DNA of 22,233 nt from Candidatus Coprovivens sp. (GTDB lineage: Bacteria > Bacillota_I > Bacilli_A > RF39 > UBA660), in the NCBI GenBank assembly GCA_051892935.1, contig JBJFGS010000016.1:1-22233 (forward strand). Reading direction: 5' to 3'. This document shows, piece by piece, positions 2,413 to 16,646 of this stretch. The number at the start of each line of letters is the position of its first letter. Position 1 is the stretch's first letter. The notes beneath the pieces were generated by a model. That model was not told the origin of the DNA. It searched no databases and saw only the letters and a list, made by a program, of their open reading frames with translations. Made by a program: the position numbers and the translations under genes.

Positions 2413-2422
2413 AGTGATAACT

Positions 2423-4708
2423 ATGAAAAAAAGAACTATATTTTATTTAAATGTATTAGTAATAATATTTTTGATTGTAATTATATTTTCTGTAAATACT
2501 AAAACTAGTTTGATTAATAAAATTTCATTTAAAAATGATAAAGTAGTTGAAAACAATTACGAAATAGAACAAGTAAAATTATTTGCCATTACTTTAGAAG
2601 CTCAATCAGAATATATAGAAAATATAAAATCGACACCATTAACATGCAATATCAACGTTGAACGTATTACAAAAATTCTGTACATAGATGAAGATAAACA
2701 AATAGGTGAAAAAAGTATAATCTACAAAGAACCTGTCGGGAATTTAATGCAACCAATAAAAAAAGGTTATACATTTGAAATGTGGACAAATGAGAATCAA
2801 GAAACAATCAATGAGCAGTCTATTATTGATTCAACAACCGATTATAAAATATATGCTAATTGGAACATAGTTATTAGTAATTTAATAGTTAATCCAAATG
2901 GTGGTACATGGAATGAAAGTGTAGGAGAACAACTATTTAGCTTAGAATATAGTGAAACAAAGGAAATACCAGATCCAACACGAATAGGTTATACATTTGA
3001 TAATTGGGAGATAACAGGTGCTGACAGCGTTATAGAAAATAAAATTTTTAAAATGGGTACTGAAAATACAACTATTAAGGCAATATGGAATGTTGATGAA
3101 TACAAATTAACAATAAATCCAAATGGTGGGACATATAACAACTCCACCAATTTAACAGAAATGACTGTCGCTTATGACTCTAAAACAAAAATAAGCACCC
3201 CTACAAGAAAAGGATATACTTTTATAGGATGGACTATTAGTAATGGTATATTAAATGGTGATGAATTTACCATGAACTATACCGGGGATGTAATTATAAC
3301 AGCTAATTGGCAAGTAAATAATTATAAATACATAGTTTATCATAAACAGCAATCAATTGATGGTAGCTCCTATAATATTGTTGCTGATGACACGATAACG
3401 GGAATATTTGATTATGGAACAACAATTATTCCTAAAATAAACGATTATACTGGATTTATCAAACCCAATACTCAAAGTTTAACAATTGATGTAGACACAG
3501 ATCCACCTGTTAAAAATATTGTTAATTATAACTATAATCGTAGTCAGTTTATATTAACAATAAATCCAAATTCTGGTATATGGAATGGCTCGTCATCTAC
3601 ACAAAAATATAATTTGTTCTATCAACAATCTTACACTATAGTAAATCCAACTAGAACAGGCTATAATTTTATAGGGTGGAACAAAGATGATCCGTATAGT
3701 AATTTAGAAGATCAAATATTTACAATGAATCTAAATGATACTACTTTAACAGCTATCTGGGAGGCCAGGAAATATACATTAACATACTCTGTAAATGGTG
3801 GTAACGCTATAACTCCGACAAGTAAAACAATAACATACGATTCTCCATACGGAACATTGCCAACTCCAACTAGAAAAGGTTATAAATTTGAAGGTTGGTA
3901 TACATCAGCAACGAGTGGAAGCAAAGTTACAGAAGCGACTATTCATAAATCAGAAAGTAACGTTACTCTTTACGCACATTGGAGCAATACAGCTCCAACA
4001 ACGCCTGTAACTACAATAACATATTTAAATTCTGGAACAACAGAAAACGGAATATTGAAAAATGGAAAAGAAACCGCAACATTAGTAGCAAAATCAACCG
4101 ATTTAGAAGATATATCTCCTACAATTAGTATTAAATGTGTATCAGGTAAACTATGTAAATCATTATCTATTACTACAACCAGTGTATCTTCGGGACAATC
4201 AATATTCAAAATAAATTCTACTTCGATTGGAGTAGGAGTAATAGAAATAACTGCAACTGATAAGGCAGGTCTAAAAAGCTCAACACGTATTATAATCATC
4301 ATTTATTCAGAAGATAATGGAGAATTAGTAGAAGCTAAATACACTGTTACTACTTATGATAGTGGATGGCTAGATTATTTAGAAGGTTTCTATATTTCTA
4401 ACTTTACATTTGAAGTAAAATTTGCTAGTGGCCATAATAATTCAAGTAATACTGATACAATGGTTGTTTATGGAATGACAGAATCTGGAAAAGAAGTAGT
4501 ACTATATACTTGGACTGGTAACATGCAATCTACACTACACGAAAGTAATTTAAATGTTTTAAATAATCTAGGTGAAAAAATTAGGCAAATACGTTTCTAT
4601 ACATATTCACCACATGATAACTGTGCTAAATCAGCTACAATAAAATATTCAATCTATTATAAGTTTGATCCTGAATTAATGGAAAGTGCTTATGAACCTG
4701 TAACTTAA
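2423..4708 (+). CDS. InlB B-repeat (Listeria-Bacteroides repeat)-containing surface protein
   Basis: N-terminal basic + hydrophobic segment; five P-x-[RK]-x-GY-x-F-x-x-W repeats with NPNGG turns and A-x-W ends; one MucBP-like unit between repeats; alternative GTG start at 2414. Confidence 0.85.
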   Translation: MKKRTIFYLNVLVIIFLIVIIFSVNTKTSLINKISFKNDKVVENNYEIEQVKLFAITLEAQSEYIENIKSTPLTCNINVERITKILYIDEDKQIGEKSIIYKEPVGNLMQPIKKGYTFEMWTNENQETINEQSIIDSTTDYKIYANWNIVISNLIVNPNGGTWNESVGEQLFSLEYSETKEIPDPTRIGYTFDNWEITGADSVIENKIFKMGTENTTIKAIWNVDEYKLTINPNGGTYNNSTNLTEMTVAYDSKTKISTPTRKGYTFIGWTISNGILNGDEFTMNYTGDVIITANWQVNNYKYIVYHKQQSIDGSSYNIVADDTITGIFDYGTTIIPKINDYTGFIKPNTQSLTIDVDTDPPVKNIVNYNYNRSQFILTINPNSGIWNGSSSTQKYNLFYQQSYTIVNPTRTGYNFIGWNKDDPYSNLEDQIFTMNLNDTTLTAIWEARKYTLTYSVNGGNAITPTSKTITYDSPYGTLPTPTRKGYKFEGWYTSATSGSKVTEATIHKSESNVTLYAHWSNTAPTTPVTTITYLNSGTTENGILKNGKETATLVAKSTDLEDISPTISIKCVSGKLCKSLSITTTSVSSGQSIFKINSTSIGVGVIEITATDKAGLKSSTRIIIIIYSEDNGELVEAKYTVTTYDSGWLDYLEGFYISNFTFEVKFASGHNNSSNTDTMVVYGMTESGKEVVLYTWTGNMQSTLHESNLNVLNNLGEKIRQIRFYTYSPHDNCAKSATIKYSIYYKFDPELMESAYEPVT

Positions 4709-4727
4709 TGATGTTAACCAAAAAAGG

Positions 4728-4756
4728 TTGACAGCATTAAAATATTTTGTTATATT
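4728..4756 (+). promoter_or_regulatory. sigma-A promoter of rpsP-khpA
   Basis: TTGACA (4728-4733), 17 nt spacer, TG-n-TATATT (4751-4756). Confidence 0.75.
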
Positions 4757-4785
4757 AGTATCGCTAAACAAAGGAGGGAAATACT

Positions 4786-5061
4786 ATGGCAGTTAAATTA
4801 AGATTAAAAAGAGGCGGTTCTAAACAAAGACCTTTCTATAGAATAGTAGCAGCAGATGCTCGTAGTCCAAGAGATGGTAGATTTATCGATACAATCGGTA
4901 CTTATAATCCAATCCCAGCTGAATACGAAGTAAGCATTGATGAAGAAAAAGCAATGTATTGGTTAACAAATGGTGCTCAACCAACTGATACTGTTCGTAA
5001 CCTATTAAGCCAAAAAGGAATTATGGCTAAATATGCTGAATCTAAAAAAGAGGGTAAATAG
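4786..5061 (+). CDS. rpsP: 30S ribosomal protein S16
   Basis: [35 protein letters not shown]...[12 protein letters not shown]; RBS AAGGAGG. Confidence 0.99.
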
Positions 5062-5063
5062 TT

Positions 5064-5309
5064 ATGGATTTAAAAGAATTTACTGAATACTTAGTAAAAA
5101 GTATTGCTAAAGAACCTGATATGGTTAGTGTTCAACAATTTGGTGGTGAAGAAGATTCCACTATCTTAGAAATCATTGTTCATGAATCAGATATGGGAAC
5201 AGTAATTGGACGTAACGGAAAAATGGCTAGTGCTATTCGTACACTAGTACAAGCTCATGCATATATTTTAGGTTTAAAGAAAGTTAAAATAAATATAGAT
5301 TCATTTTAA
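5064..5309 (+). CDS. khpA: KH-domain RNA-binding protein KhpA (YlqC)
   Basis: DMGTVIGRNGKMASAIRTLV GxxG KH loop; conserved position directly after rpsP. Confidence 0.93.
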   Translation: MDLKEFTEYLVKSIAKEPDMVSVQQFGGEEDSTILEIIVHESDMGTVIGRNGKMASAIRTLVQAHAYILGLKKVKINIDSF

Positions 5310-5342
5310 AAGAAACATTTCCAAAATGTTTCTTTTATTTTT
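5307..5342. terminator. bidirectional intrinsic terminator between convergent khpA and AraC genes
   Basis: AAAAGAAACATTT-cca-AAATGTTTCTTTT 13-bp stem with A/T tracts on both sides. Confidence 0.75.
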
Positions 5343-5355
5343 ATAGTATAACAAA

Positions 5356-5817
5356 CTAAATAGATAATTTCTTAACCTTAACATCTCTAGGTTTAATATG
5401 TTTTTTATATTCATCTATATCTTTTTTTAAAGAATTTAATCTTATAATTGAATCAACAATTATATTAGCTTCTTCATCTTTCAACCTTCTATCATAGTTA
5501 ACAAACTTTTTATAAGTAATAGGACTAACACCTATCACTTTTCTAAATATTTCTGAGTAATACTCTAATGAATTAAAGCCACTATTAAGTGCAATCTTAG
5601 TTATAGAATCATCATATTTATAATACTTTAAACTATTATAAATTTTAAAATAATTTAAATAATTAATTATAGAAATACCAACTTCCTTCTTAAATCTTTT
5701 CATAATATAAAATTTATCAAAGCAAAAAATACTACTAATTAAATCAATAGTAATCTCAGAACACATATTCTTTTCGAGATAATTAAGAATATTACAAACT
5801 AATTCATTTGCATACAT
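5356..5817 (-). CDS. AraC-family transcriptional regulator (DNA-binding domain only)
   Basis: ILNYLEKN..ITIDLIS..FKKEVGISIINYLN and SITKIALNSGFNSLEYYSEIFRKVIGVSPITYKK AraC signature; RBS GGAGAG. Confidence 0.9.
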   Translation of the reverse strand: MYANELVCNILNYLEKNMCSEITIDLISSIFCFDKFYIMKRFKKEVGISIINYLNYFKIYNSLKYYKYDDSITKIALNSGFNSLEYYSEIFRKVIGVSPITYKKFVNYDRRLKDEEANIIVDSIIRLNSLKKDIDEYKKHIKPRDVKVKKLSI

Positions 5818-5918
5818 AGTATCTCTCCATTCGCAAATATCATAACATAAAAGCCATTATTGTTTAAATTTATCTAAAAAAATTATAATATAATTAACTT
5901 ATCAAAGGAGGAAAGAAT

Positions 5919-7286
5919 ATGAATTATGCACAATGGAAGAATATGTCAGAATTAAGAGAAGAACTAGATAAAATAGGTAAAGACTTTAAAATTGAAAAAT
6001 CTGGTATTCCACTAACATATGACGAAGAACACTTATATTTTGATAGAAAGGATCATCATACATTAGTAATAGGAACAACTGGTTCAGGTAAAACACAAAG
6101 TATTGTTTTGCCACAAATAAAACTAGCCATGCTAGCAGATGAATCGCTAGTAATAAAAGACAATAATGGTGAATTATATACTGCTATAGCAGGAAACTTA
6201 GAAGAAAATAATTATAAAGTATACACAATCAACTTTGATAATTCTAATTTAAGTAATAATTGGAACCCTTTAACATTGCCTTACCAATTATATAAAGAAG
6301 GTAATGTTGATGAAGCCCAAAAAATACTAGAAAACATAGGTTACTACTTATTTAAACAATTAGATACTAAAGATGTAGATAACTTTTGGTCAACATCTGC
6401 AACTCAATACTTTGTTGGAATATCTTTATACTTGTTTGAACATGGAAAAGAAGATGAAATAAACTTCAATAGTATTTACGATATTACATGTGTTGGTGAA
6501 GATAAAAAAGATGGCGAAACGTACTTCAAACATATCCTAAATAGTCTAGAAAGAACATCTCCAACTTATATAAATTTAGTTGGTACCCTAGATGCACCAA
6601 TCGAAACAAGAGGTGGTATACTTTCTGTTTTCAAACAAATAATACGTCTAATTGTAAGTAGACAAAATTTATCAAGCATGCTTTCTACAAGTGATTTCGA
6701 TTTACTAAACATTCAAAATGAAAAATTTGCAATATTTATGATAGGAGAAGTAAATCCTTATACTATAAGACTAGAACCTTTATTCATAAATCAACTATAT
6801 AATAGTGTATCTTTAAATAAAAAAAGCTTACGCCGTATTAACGTTATAATAGATGATTTTGAATCATTATGTCCACTAGATAACTTTAGTGCCTTACTAA
6901 ATTCATCTCGTGGCTTAAATTTAAAATTTACTATTATAATCAAAAGCCTACTAGATTTAGAACGTCAATATGGAAAAGAAGATAGTGAAATACTAAAATA
7001 CACAATGGGCTGTATTATCTACTTATTAGCAAATGACTTATATACTTGTGAAGAAATATGCAAACTATGTGGTAACAAAGCACCAGGAGTACCTTTAATT
7101 ACTCCAGAAGAATTAAAACTTCTTCAAGTATTTGAAGCTATAGTATTAATTCCAAGAAATTTACCAATAAAAACAAAACTATTACCAGATTATCGTATTC
7201 CATGGAATATTAACAATATAGAAAAAGAACTTCCTGAAAGAAAAATAATAAAACATAATGTGTTTGATATCAAAAAGTACATCTAG
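5919..7286 (+). CDS. VirD4/TraG-TraD-like type IV coupling protein family P-loop protein (atypical, no TM anchor)
   Basis: HTLVIGTTGSGKT Walker A, WNPL, DNFW, IIDDF Walker B-like and LITPEEL motifs in VirD4 order; RBS AAGGAGG. Confidence 0.85.
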   Translation: MNYAQWKNMSELREELDKIGKDFKIEKSGIPLTYDEEHLYFDRKDHHTLVIGTTGSGKTQSIVLPQIKLAMLADESLVIKDNNGELYTAIAGNLEENNYKVYTINFDNSNLSNNWNPLTLPYQLYKEGNVDEAQKILENIGYYLFKQLDTKDVDNFWSTSATQYFVGISLYLFEHGKEDEINFNSIYDITCVGEDKKDGETYFKHILNSLERTSPTYINLVGTLDAPIETRGGILSVFKQIIRLIVSRQNLSSMLSTSDFDLLNIQNEKFAIFMIGEVNPYTIRLEPLFINQLYNSVSLNKKSLRRINVIIDDFESLCPLDNFSALLNSSRGLNLKFTIIIKSLLDLERQYGKEDSEILKYTMGCIIYLLANDLYTCEEICKLCGNKAPGVPLITPEELKLLQVFEAIVLIPRNLPIKTKLLPDYRIPWNINNIEKELPERKIIKHNVFDIKKYI

Positions 7287-7298
7287 TGTACTTTTTTT
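7272..7298 (+). terminator. intrinsic terminator overlapping the stop of the VirD4-like gene
   Basis: AAAAAGTACA-tctag-TGTACTTTTT followed by T run. Confidence 0.75.
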
Positions 7299-7303
7299 CT
7301 TCC

Positions 7304-7332
7304 TTGCTATTAAAAGATTATGATAGTATAAT
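7304..7332 (+). promoter_or_regulatory. sigma-A promoter of uppS-cdsA-rseP
   Basis: TTGCTA (7304-7309), 17 nt spacer, TATAAT (7327-7332). Confidence 0.65.
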
Positions 7333-7354
7333 TTATTAAGAAGGATTGATGAAA

Positions 7355-8062
7355 ATGGAAAAAAATTATCCTGAACATGTTGCTATTATTCTAGATGGCA
7401 ACAGAAGATGGGCTAAAAGAAAAGGACTTCCTCAATTAAAAGGCCATCAAAAAGGATTTGATAATATAAAAGAACTAGCTCCATATATTATTAATAAAGG
7501 AGTAAAATATTTAAGTGTATTTGCTTTTTCTACTGAAAACTTTAAAAGAACAGAAGAAGAAGTAACATACCTAATGGATTTATTTACAAATCTATTTAAA
7601 AATGAATGTAATAAAATTCATAATGAAAATATAAAAATAGTTTTTTCAGGACGTAGAGACAATTTAAGAAAAGATGTTTTAGAAGCGATGGATTATATCG
7701 CTTCTAAAACAAAAAATAATACAAAAGGAGTTTTTAACATATGTTTAAATTATGGAGGTCAACAAGAAATAGCAGATGGAACAAAACGAATAGTTAAAGA
7801 TGTTCAAGATGGAAAAATATCTATTGAAGATATCGATGAAAAACTACTATACAAATATATGTACAATGAATTACCACCAATAGATTTACTAATTAGAACA
7901 AGTGGCGAAGAAAGAATTAGTAACTTCATGATTTATAACTTAAGTTATTCTGAAATGTATTTTCCTAAAATATGTTTCCCAGATTTCGATAAAGAAGAAT
8001 TTGAACGTGCTATTGATATATATAATAATCGTGATAGAAGATTTGGAGGTAATAAAAAATGA
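7355..8062 (+). CDS. uppS: undecaprenyl diphosphate synthase
   Basis: PEHVAIILDGNRRWA, FAFSTENFKR, LNYGG, DLLIRTSGEERISNF, RRFGG; start could be 7346, 7349 or 7355. Confidence 0.97.
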   Translation: MEKNYPEHVAIILDGNRRWAKRKGLPQLKGHQKGFDNIKELAPYIINKGVKYLSVFAFSTENFKRTEEEVTYLMDLFTNLFKNECNKIHNENIKIVFSGRRDNLRKDVLEAMDYIASKTKNNTKGVFNICLNYGGQQEIADGTKRIVKDVQDGKISIEDIDEKLLYKYMYNELPPIDLLIRTSGEERISNFMIYNLSYSEMYFPKICFPDFDKEEFERAIDIYNNRDRRFGGNKK

Positions 8063-8877
8063 AAAAAAGAGTAATATCAGCAGCTATAATGGTTGCTATC
8101 GTAATCGTATTATTTCTTCTACCATCAACAATAGCAAAATATGCAATTGCTGTTGCTGTAGGTATCCTAGGTGCTTTAGCATATAAAGAAACACTAGGTT
8201 TAACAAAAAGTCATAAAGAATATCCAAAAGCTATAATAGCTATAGGATTTATATCTATGGAATTAATGATATTTAACCGCCTTAACCCAATGTATCTTCA
8301 CTATGGCCCTTCCCTAGGTATAATAGGTATAATAATGTTATTAACTCTTATACCATCAATATTCTATAAAAAAGACAAGTACACTACAAAAGATGCTTTC
8401 TATTTATTAGGAACTATCCTTTTAATAGGTATATTCTTTAATGTCCTAATGCTACTATTTATTGAAAATAAATGGTTATTATTATACTTAGTACTAGTAG
8501 CAACAATGACTGACACATTTGCCATGTTAATAGGTTGCTTAATAGGAAAACACAAATTAATACCTGACGTATCTCCTAAAAAATCAGTAGAAGGCAGTAT
8601 CGCTGGTTTAATAGTTGCAACAGCAATATCAAGCATTTATTATGTTAATATATTAGATAGTGGAATAAACATAATACTATTAATATCTATGACTATTATT
8701 CTATCAATATTAGGTCAAATAGGTGACTTATTCTTTAGTAAAATGAAAAGAGAAAATGATATAAAAGATTTTTCTAATTTAATGCCAGGTCATGGCGGAA
8801 TACTAGATAGATTTGATAGTTTAGTATTTATTATTCTAGGCTATGTTATTATTTTCCATATATTGTTATTAATTTAA
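8059..8877 (+). CDS. cdsA: phosphatidate cytidylyltransferase
   Basis: multi-TM; TDTFA, SPKKSVEG, GDLFFSKMKR..IKDFSNLMPGHGGILDRFDS signature; overlaps uppS stop. Confidence 0.97.
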   Translation: MKKRVISAAIMVAIVIVLFLLPSTIAKYAIAVAVGILGALAYKETLGLTKSHKEYPKAIIAIGFISMELMIFNRLNPMYLHYGPSLGIIGIIMLLTLIPSIFYKKDKYTTKDAFYLLGTILLIGIFFNVLMLLFIENKWLLLYLVLVATMTDTFAMLIGCLIGKHKLIPDVSPKKSVEGSIAGLIVATAISSIYYVNILDSGINIILLISMTIILSILGQIGDLFFSKMKRENDIKDFSNLMPGHGGILDRFDSLVFIILGYVIIFHILLLI

Positions 8878-8890
8878 GAAAGGTGATCAG

Positions 8891-9970
8891 ATGGGAACAA
8901 TACTAAATATAATATTATTTATAATTATCTTAGGAATTTTAATATTCGTTCATGAATTAGGTCATTTCTTAACAGCTAAAAAAAGCGGAGTATTTATTCA
9001 CGAATTTTCTCTTGGTATGGGACCTGTTATAAAACAATTTAAAGGAAAAGATGGAATAAACTACTCTATAAGAGCTCTTCCTATAGGTGGATTTGTCCAA
9101 ATGGCTGGTGAAATATATGAAGACGATGAAACAAACACAGTTCCAAAAGAAAAATTCATGTGTAATAGACCATGGTACCAAAGATTAATTATTTTAGCAG
9201 CTGGAGTTTTCAATAACTTCCTTCTAGCTATTATTTTATTATTTGTAATAGCACTAATATGGGGAGCACCTTCACTAAAACCACAAGTATATAATGTTAC
9301 AGAAGAATCAGCTGCTGAACAAGCAGGTATGAAAGCTGGAGACATCATAACTTCCGTAAATGGTTCTAAAGTAAATACATGGGATAAAGCCCAATTATTA
9401 CTTTTATTAAAAGATAAAGATGGTATATACGAAATAACTGTTAAACACGAAGATGGTAAAACAGAAGAATTAAAAATAAAACCTAAAACAGAAAAAGATG
9501 AAGAAGGTAACGAACGTCAAGTCTTCGGTATTGAAATAAGAAGTGAAGTATTAAAAGGTGATAATGCCTTAGAAAGAGTAGGCATCTCAGCTAAATATGC
9601 TTTTCAAAAATTTGGTAGTACTCTAGAACAAATGTGGTTAACTGTAGTAAATTTATTTACAGGAAAAATATCTATAAATAGTTTATCTGGTCCAGTAGGA
9701 ATCTATACTGTTGTTGGTGAAACGAGAAAAGCCGGTATTGAAAATGTTATATTCTTAATTGCATACTTAAGTATTAACTTAGGTATTATGAATATTCTTC
9801 CAATTCCAGCTTTAGATGGTGGACATATTCTTTTCTTACTAATTGAATTAATTACTAAGAAAAAAGTAAATGAAAAAGTTGAAGCAATAACAACGACAAT
9901 TTTCTTTGCTTTACTAATGCTTCTTATGATATACATTACAATTCATGATATCATAACATTAATACTTTAA
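8891..9970 (+). CDS. rseP: RIP (site-2) metalloprotease RseP/RasP with PDZ domain
   Basis: HELGH, LPIGGFV, AAGVFNN, PDZ (SAAEQAGMKAGDII), NILPIPALDGG; follows cdsA. Confidence 0.96.
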   Translation: MGTILNIILFIIILGILIFVHELGHFLTAKKSGVFIHEFSLGMGPVIKQFKGKDGINYSIRALPIGGFVQMAGEIYEDDETNTVPKEKFMCNRPWYQRLIILAAGVFNNFLLAIILLFVIALIWGAPSLKPQVYNVTEESAAEQAGMKAGDIITSVNGSKVNTWDKAQLLLLLKDKDGIYEITVKHEDGKTEELKIKPKTEKDEEGNERQVFGIEIRSEVLKGDNALERVGISAKYAFQKFGSTLEQMWLTVVNLFTGKISINSLSGPVGIYTVVGETRKAGIENVIFLIAYLSINLGIMNILPIPALDGGHILFLLIELITKKKVNEKVEAITTTIFFALLMLLMIYITIHDIITLIL

Positions 9971-9989
9971 GAGCTATATAGCTCTTTTT
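9969..9989 (+). terminator. intrinsic terminator after rseP
   Basis: AAGAGC-tatata-GCTCTT followed by TTT. Confidence 0.65.
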
Positions 9990-9991
9990 AA

Positions 9992-10020
9992 TTGCTTACA
10001 GAATAATAATTTGTTAAAAT
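9992..10020 (+). promoter_or_regulatory. sigma-A promoter of the peptidase-GNAT pair
   Basis: TTGCTT (9992-9997), 17 nt spacer, TG-n-TAAAAT (10015-10020). Confidence 0.6.
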
Positions 10021-10044
10021 ACATAGAAATTAAGGGGGATATAC

Positions 10045-10962
10045 ATGACAGAAATAGAACACGCCACATACCAAGCAACTTGTTTTTATGAAGATGCCGA
10101 AAGATTTAAATATGATATAACATTTCCTGAGTTACAATTCAGTAAAGGAGATAGAAACTATAAACGAATTCTAAATAGATTAGAAAAAATAAATTTACCA
10201 GATCCACTATCATTTAAGTACACTAACTTAACTATAGAAGAATTAAAAACTTATCTAATAGAATTACTAAGTAAAATACTAGGTCCAGAATATAAAGAAG
10301 AAATAACCAAATACAATAGTATCCTAAAAGCAAGAAACATTACTAATCCATTTGATTCAGTAATTGAAACAAATCTAGATGGACCATCCCCAGTAATAGA
10401 AGGAATTATAATTAGTAATCAATTCTCATCTATTCAAATAGCAAGTACAGCTCATGAATATGTACATGGCTTATTAAATAAGTATAATAATAGTGATTAT
10501 AATAGAGTATTATCAAACATACACTACAAAGAATTAATAAGTATATTAATTGAATATATTATATGTTACGAATTAAGTGAACTATTTAAAGAAGATCAAT
10601 TACAAGAAAAACACAATATAATAAGATTACATAACAATCAAGCCCATGCCCAAGAACATGCATCATGTGAATTAATAGCAGTAAAAATAAAAAAAATGTT
10701 TCCGATAATAGCTCAAAGTTATAAACTTTATATTGCCTATGAAAACCATTCTTCATTTGGATATATCACATCTGATATTTACGCTACTCAATTATTTAAA
10801 TATTATCAAGATGATCCTAAAACACTATTATTATTTATAAAAAGAATAATAGATGGTGAAAAAAGTATCAAAGAACTATTGAGTCATTACAATGTAGCTC
10901 TTAATAATACAGATACATTTATAACTTACAATAAACGTTTAGATAATATTCCTAAACTATAG
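10045..10962 (+). CDS. hypothetical HEXXH zinc-metallopeptidase-like protein (compact M3/PepF-like)
   Basis: TAHEYVHG, then KELISILIE (third-ligand helix), then FGY..SDIYATQLF..YQDDP resembling the M3 C-terminal region. Confidence 0.65.
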   Translation: MTEIEHATYQATCFYEDAERFKYDITFPELQFSKGDRNYKRILNRLEKINLPDPLSFKYTNLTIEELKTYLIELLSKILGPEYKEEITKYNSILKARNITNPFDSVIETNLDGPSPVIEGIIISNQFSSIQIASTAHEYVHGLLNKYNNSDYNRVLSNIHYKELISILIEYIICYELSELFKEDQLQEKHNIIRLHNNQAHAQEHASCELIAVKIKKMFPIIAQSYKLYIAYENHSSFGYITSDIYATQLFKYYQDDPKTLLLFIKRIIDGEKSIKELLSHYNVALNNTDTFITYNKRLDNIPKL

Positions 10963-10971
10963 GAGGTAACC

Positions 10972-11607
10972 ATGATAAACTACTATTCACTAAGTAAATT
11001 AATATCTCAAGGTCACAATATAGAACCTATAATAAATGAAATATTATTAGTAACAATTGCATCTAAAACAACATATCCTGAATATACAGAATGGTTTATA
11101 AATAAACACATACCAGGTATCTATCTAGGTACTAGAGATACCATAATAGCAGTAGACAATAATAAAATAATAGGTGTATCTAATATAAAACGAGAAAAAG
11201 AAAACAAACTATGTACAGTTTATTTCGATCCTAAATATCGTAAACAAAAACTAGGTCTAACTTTGGTAGATAAATCTATTGAATTAATAGGAGATAGTAA
11301 ACCATTAATCACAATGCCATCATCATATCTTCCTCAATTTAAAAATATTATAAAAAGATATGACTGGCAACTAACAGATTGTATAGATAATTGCTATTTA
11401 GAAAATACAAGCGAACTCATTTTTAATGGTGAGCTAACTAGTTTAAATAGAAAATTATCTAATGAGGAAAGAATTATTCTTGCGTATAAACACACAAAGG
11501 ATAAAAATATTCTTAAATTACTATCATTTTCACCTCTAAAAGTATTATCTTTTATAATAAAACATCAAAATATCACAAAAAAATCAAAAAAAGTATTGTC
11601 AAATTAA
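10972..11607 (+). CDS. GNAT-family N-acetyltransferase
   Basis: IIAVDNNKIIGV, KLCTVYFDPKYRKQKLGLTLV (acetyl-CoA motif A), KPLIT; RBS AGGAGG. Confidence 0.8.
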   Translation: MINYYSLSKLISQGHNIEPIINEILLVTIASKTTYPEYTEWFINKHIPGIYLGTRDTIIAVDNNKIIGVSNIKREKENKLCTVYFDPKYRKQKLGLTLVDKSIELIGDSKPLITMPSSYLPQFKNIIKRYDWQLTDCIDNCYLENTSELIFNGELTSLNRKLSNEERIILAYKHTKDKNILKLLSFSPLKVLSFIIKHQNITKKSKKVLSN

Positions 11608-11642: not shown

Positions 11643-11719
11643 GGCGCTGTAGCTCAGTTGGCTAGAGCATCCGGTTCATACCCGGCAGGTCGTGTGTTCG
11701 AATCACACCGGCGCTACCA
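11643..11719 (+). tRNA. tRNA-Met (CAT), elongator type
   Basis: 77-nt cloverleaf GGCGCTG...CGGCGCT-A-CCA; D arm GCTC/GAGC; anticodon loop TTCATAC; T arm GTGTG-TTCGAAT-CACAC; resembles the Bacillus elongator tRNA-Met. Confidence 0.96.
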
Positions 11720-11942: not shown

Positions 11943-11985
11943 TTGTCATAATTTACATCAAATGCTATAATACCACTCGAGTGGT
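11943..11985 (+). promoter_or_regulatory. sigma-A promoter with adjacent perfect 14-bp palindrome (candidate operator)
   Basis: TTGTCA (11943-11948), 17 nt spacer, TG-c-TATAAT (11966-11971), then ACCACTCGAGTGGT (11972-11985). Confidence 0.7.
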
Positions 11986-11992
11986 GAAATAT

Positions 11993-12613
11993 ATGAGAAA
12001 AAAAGTAGAACACTACCAAGGAGAACAAATCAACTTTATAATTATTTCTAAACTATTTGCAATTAGTGCTGCACGAGATTTCAAAGTTGAAGGAATAATT
12101 CCATATTCAGACATAGATACACTTGAAGAATTATGTGAAGTATATGAATGTAATCCAGATGAATTTCATATCATATTAGGTGCTGACTGGTACCTAACAT
12201 ACATAACTAGACCGGAAAAAACAGAAATAATAGAATGGGTTAGTTTAGAAAATAGAAAAGACAAAATACATCAAACTTTAGAAATGATGAAATACTTAAT
12301 TCAAGTATTATTGCTATCAAAAGAAAAAAAAGTAACTTCAACAATGCGTCATTCAACCTCGTATAAATTTTATCAACTATTAATAAAAAATGGCTATATA
12401 AAAGAACAATACAATAATCCAGGAATGGATACTTCTATACCAGATGATATACAATCTGAATTAGACATAGCTATCGAAGATAATATTAATATCAAGTATT
12501 ATTTAGATAATCCAAACAGGAACACAGAATACGACGAATACTTCTATCATGATATCTCCTTCACATTAACGAATAAATTTCTAACTAGATATGATAAAAC
12601 AATAAAAAAATAA
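11993..12613 (+). CDS. hypothetical protein (possible divergent GNAT-like fold)
   Basis: ORF with strong promoter; ATG 11993 after GAGTGGTGA preferred over GTG 11981; no confident family. Confidence 0.8.
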   Translation: MRKKVEHYQGEQINFIIISKLFAISAARDFKVEGIIPYSDIDTLEELCEVYECNPDEFHIILGADWYLTYITRPEKTEIIEWVSLENRKDKIHQTLEMMKYLIQVLLLSKEKKVTSTMRHSTSYKFYQLLIKNGYIKEQYNNPGMDTSIPDDIQSELDIAIEDNINIKYYLDNPNRNTEYDEYFYHDISFTLTNKFLTRYDKTIKK

Positions 12614-12622
12614 AATATTATC

Positions 12623-12660
12623 AAGAACTCTATAAAATTTCTTTATAAAGCTCTTTTTTT
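12623..12660 (+). terminator. imperfect intrinsic terminator
   Basis: AAGAACTCTATAAA / TTTATAAAGCTCTT (2 mismatches) followed by T run. Confidence 0.5.
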
Positions 12661-12719
12661 GTATATTAAAAAAAATTACTGTGTTAAAATAAATATTATG
12701 CAATAAGTAGGGTGGTTTT

Positions 12720-13415
12720 ATGATAATAACAAGAAATAAAGGATCAGAATCAGGTTACGACTATTCATTTACAGAAGATAATAAAACACTTCACATAATG
12801 TTTTGTCGAAATCTTGATTTATATTGGAGTCTAGAAACAAATAAAGAATATGAAACATATGAAGAAATGATAAAAGAACTTTATGAAACGTTCATAATTA
12901 CAAAAGAAAACTATCAAATATATACTCTCTTTAAAACATTATTAGATGAAATAAAAGAAGCCCAAGTTTATACTCCATCTAAAGATTATATAACAGAAGA
13001 TGATGAATTAATAGAACTACCTCCAAGTCCTGAGGAAATAATTCAGACTGAACAAAGAAATAAAGAACTAAAAAATGAAACTGGTTATCAAAGAATAATA
13101 GATGGAGAATCAATTAATTGGCATAGTGATGATGAACCTTATGAAATAGCTGACGTACTAAGAATATCAGAAGAAGATGATAAAATTATTCTTGAATTTT
13201 ATCGTCCAGAGTTAAAAGGTGAAAAATTTTCGATGCGTCAACCAGATACAATAACTATTAGATTCCGTAATTCTGGCAGCTATTACCTACCATTTAATAT
13301 CGTATTTATGAGAATGTATCTTAAACTTCAAGAATTTGATCCAAAATTAGATCAAGAATATCATCAAATCCATATTGAAGAACTTCCATATCAATTAGAA
13401 AAGAGATTGTCATGA
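12720..13415 (+). CDS. hypothetical protein, paralog 1 of a tandem trio
   Basis: shares NxDxYW, WHSDD, LEFxR and IRFxxSGSxY motifs with the next two ORFs. Confidence 0.88.
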   Translation: MIITRNKGSESGYDYSFTEDNKTLHIMFCRNLDLYWSLETNKEYETYEEMIKELYETFIITKENYQIYTLFKTLLDEIKEAQVYTPSKDYITEDDELIELPPSPEEIIQTEQRNKELKNETGYQRIIDGESINWHSDDEPYEIADVLRISEEDDKIILEFYRPELKGEKFSMRQPDTITIRFRNSGSYYLPFNIVFMRMYLKLQEFDPKLDQEYHQIHIEELPYQLEKRLS

Positions 13416-14059
13416 AAATAACAAAAACTAAAAGCGAGATAGGTACATATGACATTCGTATAGAAGAAAATGAAGATAAACATTTAGATGTTATATTTGG
13501 TGGTAATGGAGATATTTACTGGATATATGATAATTTCGAAGTAGCTTATGCCGAAGAAGATTCAATGTATGAAGCGTTCACAATTCCTATTCAAGAAGAA
13601 GGTTTATATAATATATTCAATGAATTATATGAAGACTTAATAAATTGTCGTATCATGGTTCCAGAACCAAATGAATTCTATCCAGGTCAAAGAAAAGCTG
13701 ATGAAGAAAGATGTAATAAGTCAAATGAGGAATTAAAAAATGACAATCGTTATAAATCACTAGTTAAAGACGGCGTTATAACTTGGTATAGTGATGAAGA
13801 ATATCATAGTATTGCAGAAATAGTTCGCATAAGCAAAGTAGAAAATGGTATCTTATTAGAATTCCTAAGACAGTCTTTAAAAGATGATATGGGCTTTAAA
13901 AGAATGCCTGGCTGGTACTCAATAAGATTTAGAACATCAGGAAGTACTTACACACCATGTGACCTAGTCTTTTGGCGTAACTTTGATAATTTACAAAAAT
14001 ATCAAGAACAACCAAACAAAAAAGATAAACAAGAATTAAAATTAAAAAAAGGAGAATAA
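13412..14059 (+). CDS. hypothetical protein, paralog 2 of a tandem trio
   Basis: FGGNGDIYW, WYSDE, LEFLR, IRFRTSGSTY; ATGA overlap with upstream stop. Confidence 0.88.
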   Translation: MKITKTKSEIGTYDIRIEENEDKHLDVIFGGNGDIYWIYDNFEVAYAEEDSMYEAFTIPIQEEGLYNIFNELYEDLINCRIMVPEPNEFYPGQRKADEERCNKSNEELKNDNRYKSLVKDGVITWYSDEEYHSIAEIVRISKVENGILLEFLRQSLKDDMGFKRMPGWYSIRFRTSGSTYTPCDLVFWRNFDNLQKYQEQPNKKDKQELKLKKGE

Positions 14060-14062
14060 AAT

Positions 14063-14812
14063 ATGAATGTAAGAAAAGAACAACATGACTTTGGAGCAAC
14101 ATATTACTTAGAACAAGATGAAAAGTGTTTAAAAATAATATATGGTGGTAATCTAGATTTATACTGGCACTTCTTTAATAAAAAAGCTCGTCAAGAAAAT
14201 GTATCTCCATATCAAGACGTCTATGAAAGTATGCTAATAACAAAAGAAAATTACACCATATATAGTTTATTTGAAAGTTTAATAAGAGAAACTAAATCAG
14301 GACAAGTATTCTTGCCTGAAGAAGTAACATTAGAGCCAACTTTCTACGATGAATTTGATATCTGCGATATTTACGACATTGACCAATATTCTATAGATGA
14401 TGAAGATAGAGAATCATTAACTCAAACCTATCGAATAAGTCAAGCTGCCAAAACAAATGAAAAAATCAAAAAAAGCGACAGATATCAAGAACTAACTAAA
14501 GATAATGCAATAACATGGCATAGTGATGACGCTTCATTAGATACTGCTGATATTGTAAGAATAACAGAAGTAGAAGAAGGAATCTTACTTGAATTCACAA
14601 GACCAAACTTAGATCCGGAAACATCAGAACTACACTTTCCAGGAACACTAAGCATTCGTTTTTCTAACTCTGGTAGTAGATATGGAGACTTAGTAACACT
14701 ATTTATTAGAATGTACAATAGACTTAATGAATACGAACCAGATTATCATCAAGTACATCTCGAAGAAATAGCATATCAAAAAAAACTAACTTCACCTAAA
14801 AAAGACAACTAA
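14063..14812 (+). CDS. hypothetical protein, paralog 3 of a tandem trio
   Basis: YGGNLDLYW, WHSDD, LEFTR, IRFSNSGSRY; RBS AAGGAG inside the end of paralog 2. Confidence 0.88.
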   Translation: MNVRKEQHDFGATYYLEQDEKCLKIIYGGNLDLYWHFFNKKARQENVSPYQDVYESMLITKENYTIYSLFESLIRETKSGQVFLPEEVTLEPTFYDEFDICDIYDIDQYSIDDEDRESLTQTYRISQAAKTNEKIKKSDRYQELTKDNAITWHSDDASLDTADIVRITEVEEGILLEFTRPNLDPETSELHFPGTLSIRFSNSGSRYGDLVTLFIRMYNRLNEYEPDYHQVHLEEIAYQKKLTSPKKDN

Positions 14813-14825
14813 ATGTCTTTTTTTT
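14798..14825 (+). terminator. intrinsic terminator closing the paralog operon
   Basis: AAAAAAGACA-actaaa-TGTCTTTTTT followed by T run. Confidence 0.75.
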
Positions 14826-14936
14826 CTATTTTCTTTTTTTAATAGCTAAAATATGTTAAAATAATAAACAGTTTTGTAAAAAAACATAGAATTTTCACAT
14901 AATAGATATAATCTAAAAAAAGAAGGAGGACTTTAT

Positions 14937-16646
14937 ATGCAAAATAAAAAAACAACAATTATATTCCTTATAATAACCATAATTCTTATAATAACAAGTA
15001 TAGCAATTAATATAAATACAATATACCAAGCTAAAGAAAGAATAATAACCAATATTAATGAAACAACTACTAATATAGAAGAAACTAATAATGTTGAAAA
15101 TCAAGATAAATCAGAAGAAGAAATAGAAAAATCAACTACTATAATAGACACATCTAACAAATATACCAAAAAAGAACTAATTATTATAATAATAACTTCT
15201 ATAATTATAACAATCTGCTTATTAAATCTAATTGTTACTAAATTTGGAACAATATCTCTAAGCCAATCTTTAAATACCAGTAAAAAACTAATATATTATT
15301 CTATTATACTAGTAATTTTATCTACAACATCTACAATTTATACTATAACTACTACTGATAATAAAATTCTTAATGGAGATGACACTAAAAAAATTGATGA
15401 AAAATCAGTAGCTATAATAGAAATAACAGAAAACAAAACAGATAATTCTCTATCAAAAGAAAGTCAAATAGAAGATACCTCTGTTATTCAAATAACTAAT
15501 AGTGCTGAATATATAGGAAATAAACTAGAATTACTAAAATCTAAAGGAAATACAACTGATAAAGAAAGTAGTTTATATTATGGACTTAATTCAGCTTTCT
15601 TAGCCAAAGATAGTAGTGTAGTAGAACTTAATAATAGTTACATTGCAACTGGAGTTGATTACTCAGCAGCTTTATTTGCAAGCGGTCTTAATACCCAAGT
15701 AACATTAAATAATACACGTCTTACAACTTACGGAAATAACTCCCCAAGTATATCTGTATCAACAGCATCTATAATAGCATCAGATATTGAATTATCAACA
15801 TCAAAAGATAACTCCCCAGCAATCAATATACTTAATAACAATAGCAAAATACAAATAAAAGACTCATTGTTAAATACATATGGACAAAACTCTCCTATAA
15901 TATACAATAAAGGCCAAATAACAGCTGATAATATTACAGCGACAACTAGTAATAGTAATATTATCAATATGAATAGTACAAATAATTTAACTATCACCAA
16001 TAGCGAATTGAAAACTTTAAGAAAAAAAGAAGAACCTTCTTCTTCAGCAATATATTTATTTACTGAATTAAATAAATATGAACGAGTTAATTATACAAAT
16101 AGCTTTGTATCAATCGAAGATTCAACATTAATAATCGATAAAGAATCACCTTCATACAAAGAATTACCATTATTTTATATAACTAATATAGATGTAAATA
16201 TAAACCTATCTAATACTCAAATAAAATATGGAAGTAATATTCTATTTCAAATAACTGGAAATAATCAATATGGTGAAATAGGAGATAATGGTGGAAATGT
16301 AATATTTACAGCAACTGATCAAACTTTAAAAGGAAATATTCTATTAGATGAACAAAGTAGCATTGCAATATATCTAAATAACTCAAACTATAAAGGACAA
16401 ATAAATCCTGATAATAATTCTAAAAACGTTGATATTGTTTTAGATAAAACAACAAAGTGGGAATTAACAGGTGATTCTTATATAAGAACGTTAACGCTAC
16501 AAAATGGTCAAATAAGTAGATTGAAAAAACAAATAAAATCCAATAATCATAATATATACTATAATGCATATCAAAATGATTGGTTAGAAGGGAAAACAAT
16601 TAAACTAGATGGTGGTGGACGTTTAATTCCTATCTATGAAAGTTAG
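14937..16646 (+). CDS. membrane-anchored protein with extracellular right-handed beta-helix (pectin-lyase/autotransporter-passenger-like) domain
   Basis: three hydrophobic segments in the first ~140 aa; repeating I-x-T-x-G-x-N-S-P-x-I rungs; C-terminal WELTGDSYI cap; RBS AAGGAGG. Confidence 0.75.
   Translation: MQNKKTTIIFLIITIILIITSIAININTIYQAKERIITNINETTTNIEETNNVENQDKSEEEIEKSTTIIDTSNKYTKKELIIIIITSIIITICLLNLIVTKFGTISLSQSLNTSKKLIYYSIILVILSTTSTIYTITTTDNKILNGDDTKKIDEKSVAIIEITENKTDNSLSKESQIEDTSVIQITNSAEYIGNKLELLKSKGNTTDKESSLYYGLNSAFLAKDSSVVELNNSYIATGVDYSAALFASGLNTQVTLNNTRLTTYGNNSPSISVSTASIIASDIELSTSKDNSPAINILNNNSKIQIKDSLLNTYGQNSPIIYNKGQITADNITATTSNSNIINMNSTNNLTITNSELKTLRKKEEPSSSAIYLFTELNKYERVNYTNSFVSIEDSTLIIDKESPSYKELPLFYITNIDVNINLSNTQIKYGSNILFQITGNNQYGEIGDNGGNVIFTATDQTLKGNILLDEQSSIAIYLNNSNYKGQINPDNNSKNVDIVLDKTTKWELTGDSYIRTLTLQNGQISRLKKQIKSNNHNIYYNAYQNDWLEGKTIKLDGGGRLIPIYES

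Follow-up and report, generated by a model that had tools for sequence, protein, structure and literature searches.

Three diverged paralogues in tandem: a protein family of uncultured gut Bacilli apparently outside the known kinds, amplified in a Candidatus Coprovivens lineage

What do three adjacent, related genes of Candidatus Coprovivens sp. encode, and do they form a system of their own? They lie on contig JBJFGS010000016.1 of GenBank assembly GCA_051892935.1, of which positions 1 to 22,233 were analysed; this whole stretch of 22,233 nucleotides is called the window here. The initial annotation of the window described the genes as an operon of old paralogues from an unrecognised family and proposed them as an undescribed system, either a heteromeric complex or a set of variants that differ in specificity (orphan immunity, anti-phage or effector proteins, for example). 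Our analysis upholds the family and not the system: no partner genes were found, and the array amounts to the amplification of a single family within a single lineage. The novelty is that of a protein family and not of a demonstrated multi-gene system. The three genes, in the order A1-B-A3 (the letters refer to clades of the tree described below), are:

12720..13415, plus strand: copy 1, 231 amino acids (aa), clade A, 'type 1'.
13412..14059, plus strand: copy 2, 215 aa, clade B.
14063..14812, plus strand: copy 3, 249 aa, clade A, 'type 3'.

The three proteins are mutually 35-40% identical (35% and 40% in the two comparisons with copy 1) and align over their full length with 46 invariant columns, a similarity far beyond chance. 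Against the family hidden Markov model (HMM), copies 1, 2 and 3 score 303, 296 and 287 bits, respectively. Every motif that had been listed as shared is found in the alignment, which also bears out that ITKENY and a C-terminal YHQxHxEE occur in copies 1 and 3 only. Copy 1 keeps all of the family motifs, including ITKENY and a C-terminal YHQIHIEE; in copy 2, ITKENY has become IPIQEE and the C-terminal HQxHxEE is replaced by a Lys-rich tail; and copy 3 carries the longest acidic insert of the three, at about residues 85-125. Across diverse members of the family, conservation reaches at least 90% at D33, L34, Y35, I60, K62, F71, L74, W134, D137, I149, F160, R181, N184, S187, Y189 and F196. All three copies are acidic (isoelectric points 4.57-4.84), and the absence of a transmembrane helix claimed for them agrees with a maximum 19-residue hydropathy of 0.53-0.99. 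The family is one of soluble acidic proteins of about 190-250 aa.

The three open reading frames (ORFs), their coordinates and their spacing were read from the sequence as first described: the stop codon of copy 1 overlaps the start codon of copy 2 in ATGA (13412-13415), and 3 nt separate copy 2 from copy 3 (TAA-aat-ATG, 14057-14065). The window is AT-rich (G+C 22-35%), and the candidate expression signals in and around the array are as follows, L001 being one of the two closest loci:

12682..12690, plus strand: extended -10-like element, TGTTAAAAT.
12708..12715, plus strand: ribosome binding site (RBS) of copy 1, TAGGGTGG; an identical TAGGGTGGTTTTATG stands in L001.
5' of the copy 3 start, plus strand: strong RBS of copy 3, AAAGGAGA.
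12623..12660, plus strand: weak, AT-rich hairpin with a U-run, after an upstream ORF of 206 or 210 aa.
14798..14836, plus strand: intrinsic-terminator-like hairpin with a U-rich run, its 10-bp stem including the stop codon region.

The extended -10 element is where the initial annotation placed it; a consensus scan finds no -35 partner for it, and it is no commoner here than elsewhere, its motif class occurring at 14 of 60 family genes versus 129 of 652 control genes. Similarly, TGNTANNNT is found upstream of 24 of 60 family genes and of 254 of 652 control genes, with no enrichment. The two closest loci have their -10 elements at the same distance from the ATG, 24-29 nt (TGATAAAAT in L001 and TGTTAAAAT in L002), and the element of the window is likely the housekeeping-sigma promoter of the array. 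We rejected a sporulation-type promoter, as what precedes the family genes are ordinary extended -10 elements, about as frequent as before control genes, in a scan that did not extend to other sigma-factor motifs. A strong RBS is usual, and an extended -10 element frequent, upstream of family genes generally.

A terminator had been proposed on each side of the array, and the two differ in quality. On folding, the downstream hairpin (14798-14823) reaches -8.2 kcal/mol (z -4.05, with 0 of 200 shuffles as good) and convincingly marks the end of the operon, whereas the upstream one (12623-12655) folds weakly (-4.8 kcal/mol, z -1.37, equalled by 20 of 200 shuffles) and is a possible terminator parting the 206/210-aa ORF from the array. 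A consensus scan requiring at least three G-C pairs reported no terminator at either side; it missed the downstream hairpin because the stem of the latter has only two. The genes share a strand and overlap or nearly abut, with a single promoter before them and a single terminator after them; judged from the sequence, the locus is a real operon of three genes whose flanking signals are ordinary.

Library searches place the family in no described group. Scans of the three copies gave no accepted match in Pfam (best E 0.027, under the cut-off) or NCBIfam, and none in PADLOC-DB 2.0 at E≤0.01, where the sole match was that of copy 3 to PDC-M13B (E 0.035, 0 stretches). PHROGs likewise had no accepted match to the three copies, and five members matched 0 of its families. 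A profile of the three copies found no accepted match among PDB sequences, and a broader family profile reached E 0.29 at best. When 142 diverse members were scanned singly, no Pfam family was common to more than eight of them (I-set 8, MoaF_N 7, DUF6392 5) and no NCBIfam family to more than two. In the ESM Atlas, copy 1 had no usable match, and member P0117, present there letter for letter and without a model, gave no match. The family has no name by which to search the literature, where it may already be mentioned.

Homologues are numerous. A profile search of 90%-identity clusters returned 1200 proteins at E≤1e-3 among 5914 candidates; in the best 120 of these 1200, none has a precomputed Pfam domain and three are named, all as 'hypothetical protein'. 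An exhaustive HMM search of 50%-identity representatives returned 698 at E≤1e-3, 504 at E≤1e-10 and 130 at E≤1e-30, and the best 150 of the 698 are mostly about 185-250 aa long, with a few shorter fragments and one protein of 302 aa. A search for longer proteins gave P0266 as its sole candidate fusion; here about 85 residues from the C-terminal end of the family are fused to a nucleotidase/nucleoside-hydrolase protein, and we judged it a chimera or deletion product. Only part of the family is present in P0262 (with a DNA methylase) and in P0133 (with an unrelated N-terminus). P0262, P0266 and P0133 are probably assembly or frameshift chimeras.

The predicted fold is equally without a close relative. 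AlphaFold2 models copy 1 from a 123-row alignment with a mean predicted local distance difference test score (pLDDT) of 91.3 and a predicted TM-score (pTM) of 0.87: five N-terminal strands and a long helix lead into a variable acidic insert of two short strands and two helices, after which come four strands and three C-terminal helices. The order of elements is the same in P0137, a member of 196 aa without the insert (pLDDT 93.0, pTM 0.89). Foldseek found no match to either model at E≤0.001 in PDB or BFVD; the best TM-scores were 0.25-0.30 against PDB for both models and at most 0.31 against BFVD, and P0137, as the second query, brought matches no better than those of copy 1. The likeness to solved structures and to predicted viral ones is confined to generic antiparallel beta-meanders backed by helices, the best matches being fibre knobs of adenoviruses, the SAS-6 and CCDC61 head domains, and eIF4E/4EHP. 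An internal duplication was considered and dropped (hhalign probability 2.4% for the N half against the C half, no detectable repeat). With no accepted match in four HMM libraries, the PDB sequences or two fold libraries, the description of the family as unrecognised stands, and comparisons with Pfam, NCBIfam, PADLOC, PHROGs, PDB and BFVD leave it outside known kinds.

How widely is the family kept, and is the triple arrangement typical of it? We scanned one genome per GTDB species with two peptide patterns, which yielded 62 loci, a lower bound; with the window these make 63 sources, in which copies were counted by the family HMM over six-frame ORFs. All 62 loci belong to metagenome-assembled genomes (MAGs) or uncultured genomes, with these record titles:

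Bacilli: 33 loci.
Tenericutes, Mollicutes or Mycoplasmatota: 9 loci.
Bacillales: 4 loci.
Bacillota or Firmicutes: 3 loci.
Clostridia or Clostridium: 3 loci.
Muribaculaceae: 4 loci.
Other or unranked, including Ca. Coprovivens and Ca. Onthousia: 6 loci.

In these loci, the family is confined to MAGs of 'Tenericutes' or of uncultured gut Bacilli. Four loci (L014, L038, L042 and L054) are titled 'uncultured Muribaculaceae', a group of Bacteroidota, and their members nest among those of Bacilli MAGs in the tree; the labels are probably binning or naming errors and not signs of cross-phylum transfer. Ca. Coprovivens itself has been placed in the GTDB order RF39, family CAG-1000 (PMC8035907).

The gene is present in single copy in 57 of the 63 sources. 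Intact arrays occur only in the window (three genes), L001 (three), L002 (two, at the very start of a contig, where a third copy may be cut off) and L042 (two). L058 and L061 hold fragments and L036 a truncated copy. In L061, a long-read MAG, the fragments of 67, 98 and 98 aa lie at about 4510-11229 and are separated by two DDE transposase genes, 49% identical to each other; the gene there is dispensable or recently inactivated.

Within four genes on either side, the commonest neighbour cluster recurs in 14 of the 63 sources. Genes that recur there encode a PCRF/RF-1 release factor, a class II tRNA synthetase, a LysR regulator, YitT, QueH, ribosomal protein S16, SpoIIGA with a sigma factor, a LytR-CpsA-Psr protein and an ABC transporter, and in a clade of about 11 species-level genomes the family gene stands between the LysR gene and the release-factor gene. 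Over the same distance and sources, no toxin-like, LXG/WXG, secretion or defence gene recurs, and no cognate toxin (LXG, EsaD-like, Rhs or pyocin) was found adjacent to the family. A tblastn search with copy 1 as query was negative both for 50,697 phage records and for 72,556 plasmid records, so that neither this search nor PHROGs marks the family as a phage or plasmid accessory gene. It has no conserved partner gene and is an ordinary chromosomal gene among housekeeping genes.

These results speak against the proposal that the array is a set of specificity variants. The family is single copy in most sources, keeps a conserved housekeeping synteny, has no recurrent toxin, secretion or defence neighbour, is absent from the phage and plasmid collections and matches nothing in PADLOC or PHROGs. 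One form of that proposal, a single-gene anti-phage defence protein amplified in the window lineage, we regard as very improbable. Its local amplification and its rapid evolution relative to neighbouring genes (see below) would fit such a role, but no PADLOC model matches at E≤0.01, no defence island surrounds the gene at its conserved housekeeping position, and the Pfam scans of the copies and of the 142 members detect no nuclease, NTPase, TIR, SIR2 or similar effector domain.

If one gene is the rule, how did three arise? In a quick maximum-likelihood tree (186 rows, LG+G4, Shimodaira-Hasegawa-like approximate likelihood ratio support, midpoint root), the single-copy proteins of other lineages fall outside a group of 129 rows, which is made up of clade A with 63 rows and clade B with 66 (support 100). 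In clade B, copy 2 stands with the first gene of L002. Copy 1 (18 rows) and copy 3 (11 rows, stem length 0.68) form separate clades in A, each with support 100, beside the A-type gene of two-copy genomes, and all three groups (A1, B and A3) contain one L001 gene each. Because of these placements of the copies, L001 and L002, the order would be one gene, then A and B, then A1 and A3, a direction that hangs on the midpoint root. On this tree, the triple array is a lineage-specific double duplication of the ordinary tandem type. Among the 90%-identity clusters, representatives of the three types share a longest contig value (5732 for P0007, P0021 and P0057, for example), which suggests, without proving it, that the triple array recurs in further relatives. 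At L042 (7305-8612), two sister copies (support 96) result from an independent recent tandem duplication.

The duplicates have been retained under constraint. Ratios of nonsynonymous to synonymous substitution (dN/dS) between the window and L001 are listed here; they are rough, dS being near saturation:

Copy 1: dN/dS 0.22, dS 1.24.
Copy 2: dN/dS 0.17, dS 0.86.
Copy 3: dN/dS 0.18, dS 1.34.
M29 peptidase neighbour: dN/dS 0.10, dS 1.08.

Each orthologue group has invariant residues of its own. All 28 rows of the copy 2 orthologue group are without ITKENY and the C-terminal HQIHIEE, both of which are kept in clade B of the two-copy genomes (30 rows). From these sequence comparisons, all three copies are under purifying selection and are not decaying. 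The view that they are old duplicates kept by selection is borne out by their separate clades with orthologues in relatives, their dN/dS of 0.17-0.22 and their group-specific invariants, and the decay that would have told against it is not seen. That the genes are chance ORFs or decaying pseudogenes is extremely improbable, with no observation in its favour, and is refuted by our results: the frames are intact in the window and in L001, dN/dS is about 0.2, homologues number in the hundreds and the fold predictions are confident.

Retention side by side raises the possibility of a hetero-oligomer, in which an ancestral homo-oligomer gave rise to A and B, and later A1 and A3, as obligate partners, with copy 2 as a degenerate subunit. 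We consider this somewhat unlikely as a separate account; it is compatible with the explanation that we prefer below, to which it would add a quaternary-structure layer. The genes are tightly coupled, by the ATGA overlap and the 3-nt gap; in two-copy genomes (L002) A and B remain neighbours, and three-copy genomes (L001) retain all three types; and clusters of different types share longest contig values (5732, as above, 29491 for P0011 and P0042, and 109680 for P0009 and P0043). Copy 2, moreover, is under purifying selection without two of the motifs, and motif loss under retained selection is a pattern known from degenerate subunits of hetero-oligomers. Tandem retention and coupling, however, would also fit co-regulated independent variants, and the sister duplication in L042 indicates that duplication occurs without an A/B division. 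A three-chain complex prediction (copies 1, 3 and 2 with separate alignments, copy 2 being the partner) scored 0.00 in both runs without a verdict, was made without controls and has no bearing on binding.

Could the array be one of immunity or inhibitor genes, each copy neutralising a different incoming or self toxin, such as a bacteriocin or an LXG/T7SS-type effector (T7SS, type VII secretion system), as orphan immunity genes would? The only lead in that direction among the library matches is DUF6392 (PF19929). Residues 111-164 of P0146, a distant member, match positions 5-58 of this profile at 25.9 bits, exactly the gathering cut-off; residues 111-157 of the L047 member match positions 10-56 (E 0.032); and in copy 3 it is the C-terminal half that aligns, with positions 14-57 (12.7 bits, E 0.1), three members thus sharing one register. 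Copies 1 and 2 gave no match, nor did copy 3 when scanned whole, and 5 of the 142 members match at E≤1. None of the window copies reaches 25.9 bits over the whole protein with the domain covered, as assignment to DUF6392 would demand.

What aligns is about the first third of the profile, with the helix and the 'I-x-W-x-S-D-[DE] ... LLEF' strands of our family, a span of about 50 of its 151 positions; DUF6392 comprises about 151 positions, whereas the present family has about 190-250 aa and an extra N-terminal half of five strands. Like the array, DUF6392 occurs in three tandem copies in at least one genome: in a Klebsiella strain, three such genes are reported to adjoin an S-type pyocin gene (10.1101/2025.04.03.646950), besides which we found no paper on DUF6392. 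The array here has no adjacent toxin gene, and the status of DUF6392 as an immunity family is itself a deduction from gene order. In firmicutes, tandem strings of non-identical immunity genes (esaG, tsaI) are known (PMC9484751). Like these T7SS-associated strings, the array consists of non-identical, small cytoplasmic Bacillota paralogues that evolve faster than surrounding genes. In contrast to them, it matches no named immunity family in Pfam or NCBIfam (EsaG being presumably Pfam DUF600), has no LXG, EsaD-like or T7SS gene nearby, and belongs to a family found mostly in single copy in a housekeeping context.

On balance, an immunity array is unlikely. The tandem, diverged, small and acidic cytoplasmic paralogues, their rate of evolution, the dispensability of the gene in L061, the DUF6392 register and the two precedents (Klebsiella and firmicute) would all accord with it. 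The single copy in 57 of 63 sources, the housekeeping synteny kept over about 11 species-level genomes, the lack of toxin-like, LXG/WXG or secretion genes as recurrent neighbours, the restriction to one clade with absence from plasmids and phages, and the strong polar motifs kept family-wide all speak the other way. So do the short extent of the DUF6392 match, its absence from copies 1 and 2, and the lack of any named immunity family among the matches of the three copies or the 142 members.

We therefore tentatively prefer, as the best explanation, a stand-alone cytoplasmic binding protein or enzyme that was amplified and subfunctionalised in one lineage, because the gene is single copy, holds a conserved position, has its own promoter and RBS and has no partner, and because the family shows no link to mobile elements, is restricted to one clade and conserves its polar motifs strongly. 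Most genomes carry one stand-alone gene with its own promoter and a strong RBS among housekeeping genes, whose product may act alone in the cytoplasm as a ligand-binding protein or enzyme. In the models of copy 1 and P0137, the conserved polar residues lie at strand ends or in the loops that follow (DSSP strings). A putative functional site could comprise D33 in GGNxDxYW, K62 in ITKENY, W134-x-S-D137, R181-F-R-N-S-G-S-x-Y189 and the C-terminal HQxHxEE, its residues placed at the ends of beta-strands and in the ensuing Gly/Ser-rich loops; the conserved residues may have a binding or catalytic role. On the midpoint-rooted tree, the gene of the window lineage was duplicated to A and B, and A then to copies 1 and 3, all kept by purifying selection, and the paralogues may have divided or modified the ancestral function. 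Copy 2, with two of these five motifs lost, could be a version of altered specificity or a degenerate partner.

Several observations weigh against this explanation. L036 and L058 have no full gene, and two DDE transposases interrupt that of L061; the gene is not essential everywhere. In the syntenic clade used to compare rates (L012, L013, L016, L017, L022, L026, L027, L031, L034 and L035), mean pairwise identity is 77% for the family, as against 96% for the release factor (36 pairs), 95% for the tRNA synthetase, and 92% and 90% (LysR), the latter three values from 21 pairs each, a divergence about five times that of the release factor and tRNA synthetase and more than twice that of the LysR regulator. 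Such fast evolution would be no less expected of a dispensable or conflict-related protein than of an enzyme and, together with the L061 copy broken by an insertion sequence, weighs somewhat against a core enzyme. The same-register DUF6392 similarity in three members points weakly to an immunity-like family. That the invariant residues gather into one site is a proposal, and no search that we made indicates a biochemical function.

A bolder view, which we regard as doubtful, is that the family represents a new fold-level superfamily of RF39-type and related gut Bacilli, with either an undescribed activity or membership in an unrecognised immunity superfamily, and is now a three-subunit or three-specificity module in the window lineage. 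An example of such an activity would be the binding of a nucleotide or phosphate ligand by a scaffold of two conserved strands with Trp and the R-x-R-N-S-G-S loop; alternatively, the family could be a Gram-positive, two-domain branch of an immunity superfamily that includes DUF6392.

The surroundings of the array in the window are a GNAT protein, a tRNA-Met, an ORFan, a beta-helix membrane protein and an M29 peptidase, of which three are located as follows:

11643-11719, plus strand: tRNA-Met (anticodon CAT), between the GNAT gene and the ORFan before the array.
11981-12613, plus strand: upstream ORF, 210 aa from GTG or 206 aa from ATG.
14937-16646, plus strand: 569-aa protein with N-terminal hydrophobic segments and an Asn/Ser/Thr-rich repetitive region.

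Genes for tRNAs are common insertion points of islands. Synteny of the array with the M29 peptidase, seen in both L001 and L002, speaks for a native array and not an inserted island. The upstream ORF has the best sigma-70-like promoter of the region by consensus scan (TTGTCA-17-TATAAT with TG, 11943-11971) and no Pfam, PDB or PHROGs match of note. As a candidate partner of the array it was rejected, being an ORFan with its own promoter and only seven homologue clusters, all from close relatives; two of these clusters share a longest contig value with family clusters (8647 and 4505). The 569-aa protein has a weak match to the beta-helical passenger of Vag8, an autotransporter of Bordetella (E 1.4e-05); it is conserved in L001 (62% identity), but L002 lacks it between its array and the M29 gene. 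A neighbour of about 570 aa shared among loci was also discounted, as phmmer and all-against-all BLAST show no relationship between the proteins of that size that lie near the family gene in several loci.

Other genes of the window deserve brief mention. A clear homologue of CotE, the outer spore coat protein E, is encoded at 825-1352 on the plus strand (E 7.9e-48), and SpoIIGA with a sigma factor adjoins the family gene in L047, L049 and L054; sporulation genes in small-genome uncultured Bacilli may merit attention. A lone VirD4/TraG-type coupling-protein homologue (T4SS-DNA_transf, E 5.5e-38) at 5919-7286 on the plus strand lies beside an AraC-type regulator at 5356-5817 on the minus strand, the pair standing between rpsP/KH and uppS-cdsA-rseP; the window holds no other conjugation genes. 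A 764-aa protein (2414-4708, plus strand) with four Listeria-Bacteroides repeats and InlB B-repeat-like domains is probably a surface protein.

The locus is of interest for its family and not as a new multi-gene system. Bacilli of the RF39 type and their relatives, uncultured and with small genomes, are common in the gut communities of animals and humans, and a family that hundreds of their lineages keep, with confident structure models and with neither a library model nor a solved-fold match, is a concrete structural and functional target. The window lineage is a natural experiment within that family: its three selected paralogues, one of them without two of the motifs, could help to assign roles to those motifs.

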